Source: Syntrophales bacterium
GTDB lineage: Bacteria; Desulfobacterota; Syntrophia; Syntrophales; PHBD01
Assembly (NCBI GenBank): GCA_963668175.1
Contig: OY764159.1
Span: 832,001 to 896,000 of the forward strand
Reading direction: 5' to 3'
Length of the DNA: 64,000 nt
This document shows positions 54,330 to 54,628 of this stretch, in pieces (within the stretch, counting starts at the first letter, position 1; each line of letters begins with the position of its first letter). Below the pieces are notes generated by a model that was not told the origin of the DNA, did no database searches, and saw only the letters and a program-made list of their open reading frames with translations. Made by a program: the position numbers and the translations under genes.

Positions 54330-54373
54330 GATTCAAGCGAAACTCTTTTTTAACGATACCGGGGTAATTCTTC

Positions 54374-54520
54374 ATGGAATGGTTCACTTTTCATAAGCCG
54401 TTGAAACCGAAACAACGCGTCGGTGTTCCGGATACATTGTTAATGCGTCTCGTCTTTAGGTTCATGTGTGGCATCAAGACCATGTGTTGCGTCACGACAT
54501 GGGGAGGAGTGCTTATGTAG
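54374..54520 (+). CDS. Candidate Met/Cys attenuation leader peptide (48 aa; not in ORF track)
   Basis: MEWFTFHKPLKPKQRVGVPDTLLMRLVFRFMCGIKTMCCVTTWGGVLM*. GGGGT SD 8 nt upstream; the stop lies inside the antiterminator. Confidence 0.65.
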   Translation: MEWFTFHKPLKPKQRVGVPDTLLMRLVFRFMCGIKTMCCVTTWGGVLM

Positions 54521-54548
54521 CTCATTCGTACCAGACAATGAGCAACGT

Positions 54549-54593
54549 AAGCCCGCCGCCCGGTGAAAGCATCATTCCGGGGGCGGGTTTTTT
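54549..54593 (+). terminator. Intrinsic terminator (attenuator) in the metY 5' leader
   Basis: AAGCCCGCCGCCCGG / CCGGGGGCGGGTTT stem plus T6, 35 nt before the metY ATG. Confidence 0.85.
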
Positions 54594-54628
54594 ATTCTGG
54601 CAGGAAATTTTATAAAGGAGAACGATCA

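Follow-up and report, generated by a model that had tools for sequence, protein, structure and literature searches.

Upstream of metY, the gene for O-acetylhomoserine sulfhydrylase, in a 64,000-nucleotide (nt) stretch of a Syntrophales bacterium genome (assembly GCA_963668175.1, contig OY764159.1, positions 832,001 to 896,000 of the forward strand; hereafter the window, in whose own numbering coordinates are given unless another locus is named), we find a leader that is most probably a ribosome-mediated (leader-peptide) transcription attenuator with methionine (Met) and cysteine (Cys) regulatory codons, judging from its sequence and from those of its relatives. The features by which leader-peptide attenuators are recognized at the sequence level are present: a short open reading frame (sORF) co-oriented with the operon, end-product codons, an intrinsic terminator, and an antiterminator. 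An original prediction, made from the letters of the window, had described this arrangement and interpreted it as a Met/Cys-reading attenuator; the description was confirmed, and the interpretation is supported by the comparative and folding evidence given below.

The sORF lies in the 534-nt intergenic region that separates a divergent Rrf2-family gene (53654-54094, minus strand) from metY. It runs from 54374 to 54520 on the plus strand, 48 codons followed by a TAG stop in the open reading frame (ORF) listing, and its product is MEWFTFHKPLKPKQRVGVPDTLLMRLVFRFMCGIKTMCCVTTWGGVLM. Translation agreed with the sulfur residues claimed for it (M24, M31-C32, M37-C38-C39 and M48), and the claimed Shine-Dalgarno (SD) sequence, GGGGT, was read at 54361-54365 on the plus strand, 8 nt 5′ of the ATG; this SD is of moderate strength, with an anti-SD duplex of -6.3 kcal/mol that is equalled by 14% of random positions. 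The regulatory Met/Cys cluster is placed at codons 31-39 (M C G I K T M C C; 54464-54490, plus strand) on the basis of the translation and of a peptide alignment.

Folding placed the remaining elements of the switch, all on the plus strand, between the cluster and metY. Near its 3′ end the sORF is G-rich; this segment, region 2 (CATGGGGAGGAGTGC, codons 42-46, 54498-54512), is the predicted 5′ strand of the antiterminator, where it makes 11 pairs with 54551-54565, and it carries an SD-like GGAGG at 54503-54507. Both the final Met codon (54515-54517) and the stop, TAG (54518-54520), lie within an inner hairpin (54511-54552). Of the 15 nt in the 5′ arm of the terminator (region 3, 54552-54566), 10 are sequestered in the antiterminator, and region 4 is made up of the 3′ arm (54572-54587) plus the TTTTTT T-run (54588-54593), which ends 36 nt 5′ of the metY ATG. 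The terminator folds at -23.5 kcal/mol, as strong as had been proposed for 54549-54593, with the correction that its stem (54552-54587) begins at 54552 and not 54549. The three pairings proposed for the alternative helix (54520-54526 with 54537-54543, 54511-54518 with 54545-54552, and the G-run 54502-54509 with 54554-54561) all exist, and in RNAfold they join into a single long helix once the terminator 3′ arm is omitted; this helix sequesters the terminator 5′ arm and encloses the leader TAG, as claimed. Its supposed mutual exclusion with the terminator holds for the outer extension (54498-54512 with 54551-54565), which competes with the terminator, but not for the inner hairpin, which is compatible with both structures and coexists with the terminator in the minimum free energy (MFE) fold. 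The whole leader folds modestly better than shuffled sequences (z = -1.9; 2 of 100 shuffles were as stable).

In the mechanism that we propose, RNA polymerase would make the roughly 300-nt leader while its 48-codon sORF is being translated. A shortage of Met-tRNA or Cys-tRNA would stall the ribosome at codons 31-38 and leave 54498-54512 free to pair with 54551-54565 around the inner hairpin; the terminator could then not nucleate, and polymerase would continue through metY-cysK-metX-metW-nifS-nifU-cysE. With both tRNAs charged, the ribosome would reach the stop codon and cover region 2 together with the 5′ half of the inner hairpin, 54552-54587 and the T-run would form, and transcription would end 36 nt before metY. 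Translation of the sORF, stalling at AUG and UGY codons as the signal, and a kinetic choice between the two structures are what we infer, and from the codon content we further infer that the leader senses the charging of Met-tRNA and Cys-tRNA.

The same composite device recurs at other metY loci. A MetY scan of one genome per species supplied the best 80 of at least 571 relatives (63-82% identity), and the window plus these 80 loci formed the comparison set. Because a blastn search with the 546-nt intergenic region against the 80 loci showed no leader similarity, its sole match being an operator-like palindrome in L044, we compared peptides and structures instead of leader DNA. The conservation expected among relatives by the original prediction was found in the upstream regions of eight of the 80 loci (L006, L019, L026, L029, L031, L042, L073 and L079), each with an sORF, a Met/Cys run, a terminator and a complementary segment whose pairing covaries, so that nine instances are available with the window. 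Each consists of a short ORF with a dense Met/Cys run and a G-rich 3′ end, a stop, and then a terminator T-run that begins 51-71 nt after the stop in all nine; the sORF always has the orientation of metY and precedes that gene or its operon. The carriers' records are titled Syntrophales, 'delta proteobacterium', Omnitrophota (L042 and L073) and Verrucomicrobia (L019 and L026), and L029 is unclassified. The genes behind the leader are metY-cysK-metX-metW in L006 and metY, a CBS-domain PALP enzyme, a Cys/Met pyridoxal phosphate enzyme and DUF3034 in L019; in L042 and L073 the order is Rrf2 gene, leader, DUF2292, DUF3034, metY and cysK, to which L042 adds metX and metW (the L073 record ends soon after cysK).

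Dense Met/Cys clusters are not rare on their own, and scans of the comparison set show how far position and context distinguish the leaders. A strict scan for at least 5 Met/Cys in 9 residues, over 81 sequences (692,564 nt, both strands), returned 20 hits, 8 of which are leaders upstream in metY operons; six of these fall within about 220 nt upstream of metY, against about 0.2 expected from background. The 12 non-leader hits were dropped as the ends of long ORFs or as lying on the opposite strand, and one unrelated hit lies inside the window itself (53301, minus strand). A relaxed scan, in which a downstream terminator was required in addition to a Met/Cys cluster, gave 15 hits, nine of them leaders; those in L015, L033, L068, L074 and L078 and at window position 10036 (minus strand) were dropped, again as long-ORF ends or opposite-strand frames. 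Separately, a frame in an Elusimicrobiota record (L070, 3753-3902), 100-230 nt upstream of metY, contains CMTVIMCC and later PWGGV and crosses a terminator with a G-rich 5′ arm; it may be a divergent variant or chance. That clusters as dense as the window's arise by chance about 1-2 times per 64 kb, that the window antiterminator is weak, and that two operator-like palindromes in the intergenic region are significant could all be taken to mean that the sORF itself is a chance frame, the divergent Rrf2 repressor being the sole regulator and the terminator leaky or vestigial. We find this scarcely credible given the composite device in eight other loci, with titles from at least three phylum-level groups, the 18 database peptides described below, and the covariation between region 2 and the terminator arm; the comparative data already make it unlikely.

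At the protein level the leaders form a family. Aligned, the nine peptides share the C-terminal consensus MMCCMxMC....RGG..M; the L079 peptide is MKQGNNLINMMMCMCYYTGRGGLFM, that of L006 ends SMMMCCMSMCFHLGRGGPPM, and that of L031, which is 5′-truncated, ends MMCICDYTGRGGLLM. A HMMER profile search of 1.84 billion representatives yielded 16 hits at E <= 0.001 (3 already in the query and 13 new), and a word-index profile search yielded five peptides among 19 candidates. All 18 database peptides carry the motif M-M-M-C-C-M-x-M-C ... G-x-G-G-x-x-M at the very C-terminus. In the alignment of all 27 peptides (nine instances and 18 from the databases), M31, C32 and G44 in window numbering are at least 90% conserved, and cluster codons 31-39 align with the column block M-M-M-C-C-M-x-M-C. 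Met codons outnumber Cys codons in most members. The 54374 start codon is supported by the full-length likeness of the 48-residue database peptide P0009, which is 73% identical (35/48) to the window peptide. Among the nine DNA-level instances, Cys codons vary synonymously (15 TGT and 15 TGC) with Cys itself kept, a pattern that selection on the amino-acid codon, and not on the RNA sequence, is predicted to give.

The conservation of about 20 C-terminal residues across the 27 peptides, and of the N-terminal part between the window and P0009, would also suit a small functional Cys/Met-rich peptide, for example a metal- or sulfur-binding one, whose hairpin is merely its terminator. This we judge very improbable: the N-termini and lengths (25-48 amino acids at the DNA level) are otherwise unrelated, the five word-index peptides have no Pfam domain recorded, a terminator in front of a co-oriented operon without a promoter-like gap would silence that operon, and the conserved 3′ codons complement a genome-specific terminator arm, which peptide function does not predict.

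With a ribosome placed on the first codon of the cluster, we folded the RNA left free as far as the loop of the terminator. In all nine instances sORF codons -11 to -2 formed 9-17 base pairs with the 5′ arm and loop of the terminator, and the helix so formed encloses an inner hairpin holding the stop. The terminators are unrelated in sequence across instances, and the partner strand changes in step: CTTGGCAGGGG pairs with CCCACTGCCAAG in L006, CTCTTGGGTAG with CTACCAAAGAG in L042, GCCTTCCGGTAAGGGG with CCCACTACCAGGAAGGC in L073, and CACCGGCCGG with CTGGCCGGTG in L031. Pairing of this kind was tested against a generic affinity of G-rich for C-rich segments with chimeras: every upstream part was combined with every terminator arm, and the interaction energy was computed for each of the 81 combinations. 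The native combinations averaged -13.3 kcal/mol versus -8.0 kcal/mol for the 72 chimeras, and a fraction of 0.0001 of 100,000 permutations reached the native mean (0.00084 without L031, which is L079-like); a cruder duplex test of native versus chimeric pairing gave 0.017. RNAalifold, applied to a MAFFT alignment of six leaders, recovered only an invariant GGG/CCC core of 3 pairs with no compensatory change. An alignment by sequence alone leaves the helices out of step with one another, and we therefore used per-sequence folds and the chimera permutation. The predicted consequence of a ribosome reaching the stop held throughout, the terminator being the MFE structure in all nine folds with the ribosome on the stop codon. 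The converse, that stalling in the cluster frees the antiterminator, stood in part: the MFE structure lacked the terminator in six of the nine folds, and the window, L079 and L029 kept it.

Several results weigh against the attenuator reading, and some of them concern the window itself. In the three instances just named the terminator remains the MFE structure despite the stalled ribosome, and the two states of the window leader differ by 9.5 kcal/mol in favour of the terminator (antiterminator -37.5, terminator -47.0 kcal/mol). The switch there must therefore be kinetic. A kinetic decision is usually assumed for trp attenuation as well. The window's native interaction (-8.9 kcal/mol) ranks 7th of 9 in its column, its cluster is the sparsest of the leader family (5 of 9 residues are Met or Cys), and the SDs at assumed start sites are weak to moderate, being equalled by a fraction of 0.07-0.81 of random positions in eight instances. 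A third measure in the chimera test, how probable upstream pairing of the arm is, fell short of significance (0.14). So did shuffle controls in which the ribosome sat on the last cluster codon or the third from the end (fractions 0.01-0.95), because at that offset it already covers part of region 2. The device is carried by only 8 of the 80 loci, and L009, L022 and the Smithellaceae loci are without it though they are close relatives. A model based on stalled elongation also does not address the fact that Met starvation hits sORF initiation as well, it leaves unexplained the terminal Met codon behind a strong internal SD, and the evidence for attenuation consists of the members' own sequences and folds. 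Of the trp/his/leu-type geometry that had been claimed, the sORF, cluster, terminator and alternative pairing are found in the nine instances; no consistent trp-type 1:2 protector helix appears in their ribosome-free folds. The CCAUGU/ACAUGG pairing in the ribosome-free fold of the window has no consistent equivalent in the other eight.

The end of the sORF deserves separate attention. Its last sense codon is Met in six of the nine DNA-level instances (Syntrophales-like and Omnitrophota) and in all 18 database peptides, and in those six a GGAGG-like run (GGCGGAG in L073) lies 7 nt upstream of the terminal Met codon, the whole module occupying 54503-54520 in the window. The duplex of this G-run with the anti-SD reaches -11.5 to -12.0 kcal/mol in five of the six, a strength that the SDs at the assumed starts do not approach. 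Among the peptides, R, M, K, V or W can precede G-G, and the codon for this residue in the six Met-terminal DNA instances is CGG, AGG or TGG, always ending in G, which argues for a constraint on the RNA (GGG pairing with CCC at the terminator base) and not on the peptide. The G-run is accounted for by that pairing; the terminal AUG is not, and it therefore raises two further readings.

According to one of these, the C-terminal G-x-G-G-x-x-M-stop module (GGAGG, 7 nt, AUG, stop) is the real sensor and the Met/Cys run is secondary; a sulfur metabolite would cause TnaC-like arrest at the stop, or a ribosome would dock at the start-stop, and either event would mask region 2 and favour termination. 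The prevalence of the terminal Met and the strong internal duplex fit such a sensor, as does the Pro-Pro that precedes the final Met in many members. We nevertheless give it a slim chance, for the Verrucomicrobia-type instances (L019, L026 and L029) lack the terminal Met yet keep the Met/Cys run, G-run and terminator, the variable residue before G-G with its G-ending codon points to an RNA constraint, and the most conserved columns are those of the Met/Cys run. The other reading retains Met/Cys attenuation and adds to it: the window leader would be the founding member of a cross-phylum Met/Cys attenuator family, with AUG as a regulatory codon, and the conserved SD-7 nt-AUG-stop would be a second, 'start-stop' site for ribosome docking that masks the antiterminator strand. 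In this full form the proposal is unlikely, if less so than a pure C-terminal sensor. Were it true, the switch would integrate the charging of elongator Met-tRNA and Cys-tRNA with initiation capacity (fMet-tRNA), and the paradox of sensing the initiator amino acid by means of translation would be resolved.

A leader of roughly 300 nt that ends in a terminator with an alternative pairing also resembles transcriptional riboswitches, and in Geobacter and Desulfuromonas metX and metIC are under S-box control (PMC545781). An RNA that binds a metabolite or protein (a new S-adenosylmethionine (SAM), Met or Cys riboswitch, or the target of an RNA-binding protein), with the ORF incidental, would account for this. 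Searches against Rfam (release 15) found no family that explains the leader, as the original prediction required: the sole hit in the window was 6S RNA at 41290-41484, none reached its gathering score in the leader, and at E <= 10 nothing relevant or plausible was found in 54100-54700, where mir-193, freshwater-2, ST7-AS1, isrD, CyVA-1 and sR52 (E 0.08-9.3) were rejected as chance. A search of 20 related loci likewise turned up no Rfam family in front of their metY genes. Moreover, apart from the end of the sORF, the leader shows no conservation at the nucleotide level by blastn, and the conserved element is a reading frame with Met/Cys codons and synonymous Cys changes. A binding RNA is thus about as improbable as a functional peptide. 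The same searches returned two elements elsewhere: the 6S/SsrS RNA of the window (plus strand) scores 96.3 bits against a gathering score of 46.4, and a thiamine pyrophosphate riboswitch in a Smithella record (L080, 6992-7091, plus strand; 57.8 bits, gathering score 54.3) lies about 1.7 kb past the end of the metY match.

The genes that the attenuator would control bear out the predicted operon content, metY-cysK-metX-metW-iscS-iscU-cysE, with the desulfurase being of NifS/IscS type and the scaffold of NifU/IscU type. The first gene of the presumed regulated operon, metY (54629-55954, plus strand; TIGR01326, 638 bits), has its SD, AAAGGAG, at 54614-54620, outside the predicted leader helices. 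It is followed on the plus strand by cysK (55983-56906), metX (56919-58082), metW (58075-58677), the NifS/IscS-type cysteine desulfurase gene (58742-59905), the NifU/IscU-type scaffold gene (60011-60442) and cysE, encoding serine O-acetyltransferase (60459-61415); the stretch 55983-61415 is presumed to be the remainder of the operon, given the short gaps and the lack of a strong internal terminator on that strand. The genes mnmA and nadA come after the serine acetyltransferase gene, just 3′ of which a weak terminator-like hairpin (61426-61438, plus strand) may end the operon before mnmA. For transcription of the operon we read a presumed -35 element, TTGACA, at 54288-54293 (plus strand) and, 17 nt after it on the same strand, a weak -10 candidate, TATCTA. 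A simple promoter/terminator scanner lists neither this presumed promoter nor the leader terminator, the latter because its loop is longer than 8 nt.

Regulation at initiation is probably a second layer, independent of the attenuator, to which the divergent Rrf2-family regulator and two operator-like palindromes in the sequence would contribute. The regulator is CymR/IscR-like and scores 124.9 bits with TIGR00738, above the cutoff; the CymR and IscR equivalog models fall under their own cutoffs on this protein. Motif search located a perfect 7-3-7 palindrome, TCTACTGTTTCAGTAGA, before the Rrf2-family gene (54133-54149) and a second copy, TCTATTATTTCAGTAGA, over the presumed -10/start region of the metY operon (54313-54329). 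The 17-nt motif (TCTAYTRTTTCAGTAGA) has three matches in the window, a number reached in none of 100 shuffles, and a similar site precedes the Rrf2 gene of L044, at 3451. From their positions, the two palindromes are likely Rrf2 (CymR/IscR-like) operators, the former serving autoregulation and the latter acting on the operon promoter. A gene of about 145 codons lies co-directionally just upstream of metY in many loci (e.g. L012, L022, L036, L037, L044, L048, L053, L056 and L079); the gene of this kind is Rrf2 in L042, L073 and L079, and in the window Rrf2 is divergent instead.

Two further observations concern the loci compared. Genes for DUF2292, a small protein, and DUF3034 occupy 2773-2964 and 3087-3947 in L042 and 1130-1321 and 1433-2302 in L073, and further genes of this kind lie at L019 8049-8897 and L029 5631-6500, all inside leader-controlled metY operons. 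From this placement, in records titled Omnitrophota and Verrucomicrobia and in an unclassified one, the two families may act in the metabolism of sulfur amino acids. Archaeal MetY proteins (Bathyarchaeota, Thermoproteota, Methanoregula and Methanobrevibacter; L003-L005, L007, L008, L013-L017, L043 and others) are 63-76% identical to the window MetY among the matches listed, about as close as many bacterial homologues, which hints at transfer between domains.

A Met/Cys-reading attenuator, if that is what the leader is, would fill a gap, methionine being absent from leader-peptide attenuation as documented in the literature covered; it would mean that AUG, the initiation codon, can act as a hunger codon. 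The shared control would tie the poorly understood DUF2292 and DUF3034 to Met/Cys limitation, and the leader would offer a compact, portable part for Met/Cys-responsive gene control. In uncultured genomes of Syntrophales-like bacteria, Omnitrophota and Verrucomicrobia, sulfur-assimilation operons could also be annotated cheaply by the signature, an sORF that ends ...MMMCCMxMC...GxGGxxM and is followed by a terminator.

Attenuation by leader peptides is textbook material; in the literature covered, the amino acids for which it is described are Trp, His, Leu, Ile/Val, Thr and Phe, and terminator-less Cys upstream ORFs (uORFs) are known in Actinobacteria. Like the classical attenuators (trp, his, leu, thr, ilvGMEDA, ilvBN and pheA of Proteobacteria; trp and ilvB of Actinobacteria), the window leader has an sORF with end-product codons, an intrinsic terminator before the first structural gene, and an alternative helix that uses the terminator 5′ arm, with ribosome position as the deciding factor. 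The thr and ilv leaders provide a precedent for one leader that reads more than one amino acid. Unlike the classical examples, the regulatory codons here are Met and Cys, Met being unreported in the literature covered; a 1:2 protector helix is not consistently found in the family; inside the antiterminator sits a further hairpin, which carries the stop codon; the sORF ends in a G-run/SD-like element and then AUG-stop; there is no match to Rfam leader families; and the hosts are Syntrophales-like, Omnitrophota and Verrucomicrobia records and not enterics.

The closest parallel for the Cys codons is with the polycysteine uORFs of Actinobacteria, likewise sORFs, with runs of Cys codons close to the stop, before cysteine-metabolism genes that have been read as Cys-tRNA sensors (PMC1262725; 10.1101/834739). 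As far as the accessible text of those reports goes, the uORFs before cys/cbs operons have no obvious terminator (Seliverstov 2005, PMC1262725), and those of Mycobacterium smegmatis are leaderless and act on translation through SD sequestration (Canestrari 2020 preprint, 10.1101/834739). The window family differs from the uORFs so described in its intrinsic terminator with covarying antiterminator, in the untranslated stretch before the sORF, and in mixing Met with Cys codons; with a terminator present, the metY SD outside the helices and Met and Cys mixed, the window leader is not a member of that actinobacterial group.

Met genes are assigned to SAM and S-adenosylhomocysteine (SAH) riboswitches, T-boxes, MetJ, MetR, SahR and McbR. 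The comparative work on methionine control covered here describes S-box elements and transcription factors (PMC545781, PMC4239095), and the part of PMC2965389 at hand treats His leaders in Firmicutes and not Met. We found no Met or Met/Cys leader peptide in the literature, subscription-journal reviews and supplements lying outside the search, so that a prior description is possible. S-box (SAM-I) and other SAM/SAH riboswitches and Met T-boxes share with the window leader a position before metX, metY or metIC together with a terminator, and they answer the same physiological need (PMC545781; PMC4239095); in contrast to these, which sense SAM, SAH or uncharged tRNA by a conserved fold, no such fold was detected in the leader, and it is the reading frame that is conserved. 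The metXZ RNA element of beta-proteobacteria (Leyn 2014, PMC4239095) is alike in having a predicted terminator/antiterminator before methionine genes and non-conserved terminators, and unlike in its conserved non-coding regions 1-6 and pseudoknot; the terms 'leader peptide' and 'attenuat' are absent from the accessible text of that paper. Set against all of these systems, the mechanism class of the window leader is familiar, and what is new, as far as we found, is its specificity for Met together with Cys, its conserved C-terminal module, and its cross-phylum distribution.

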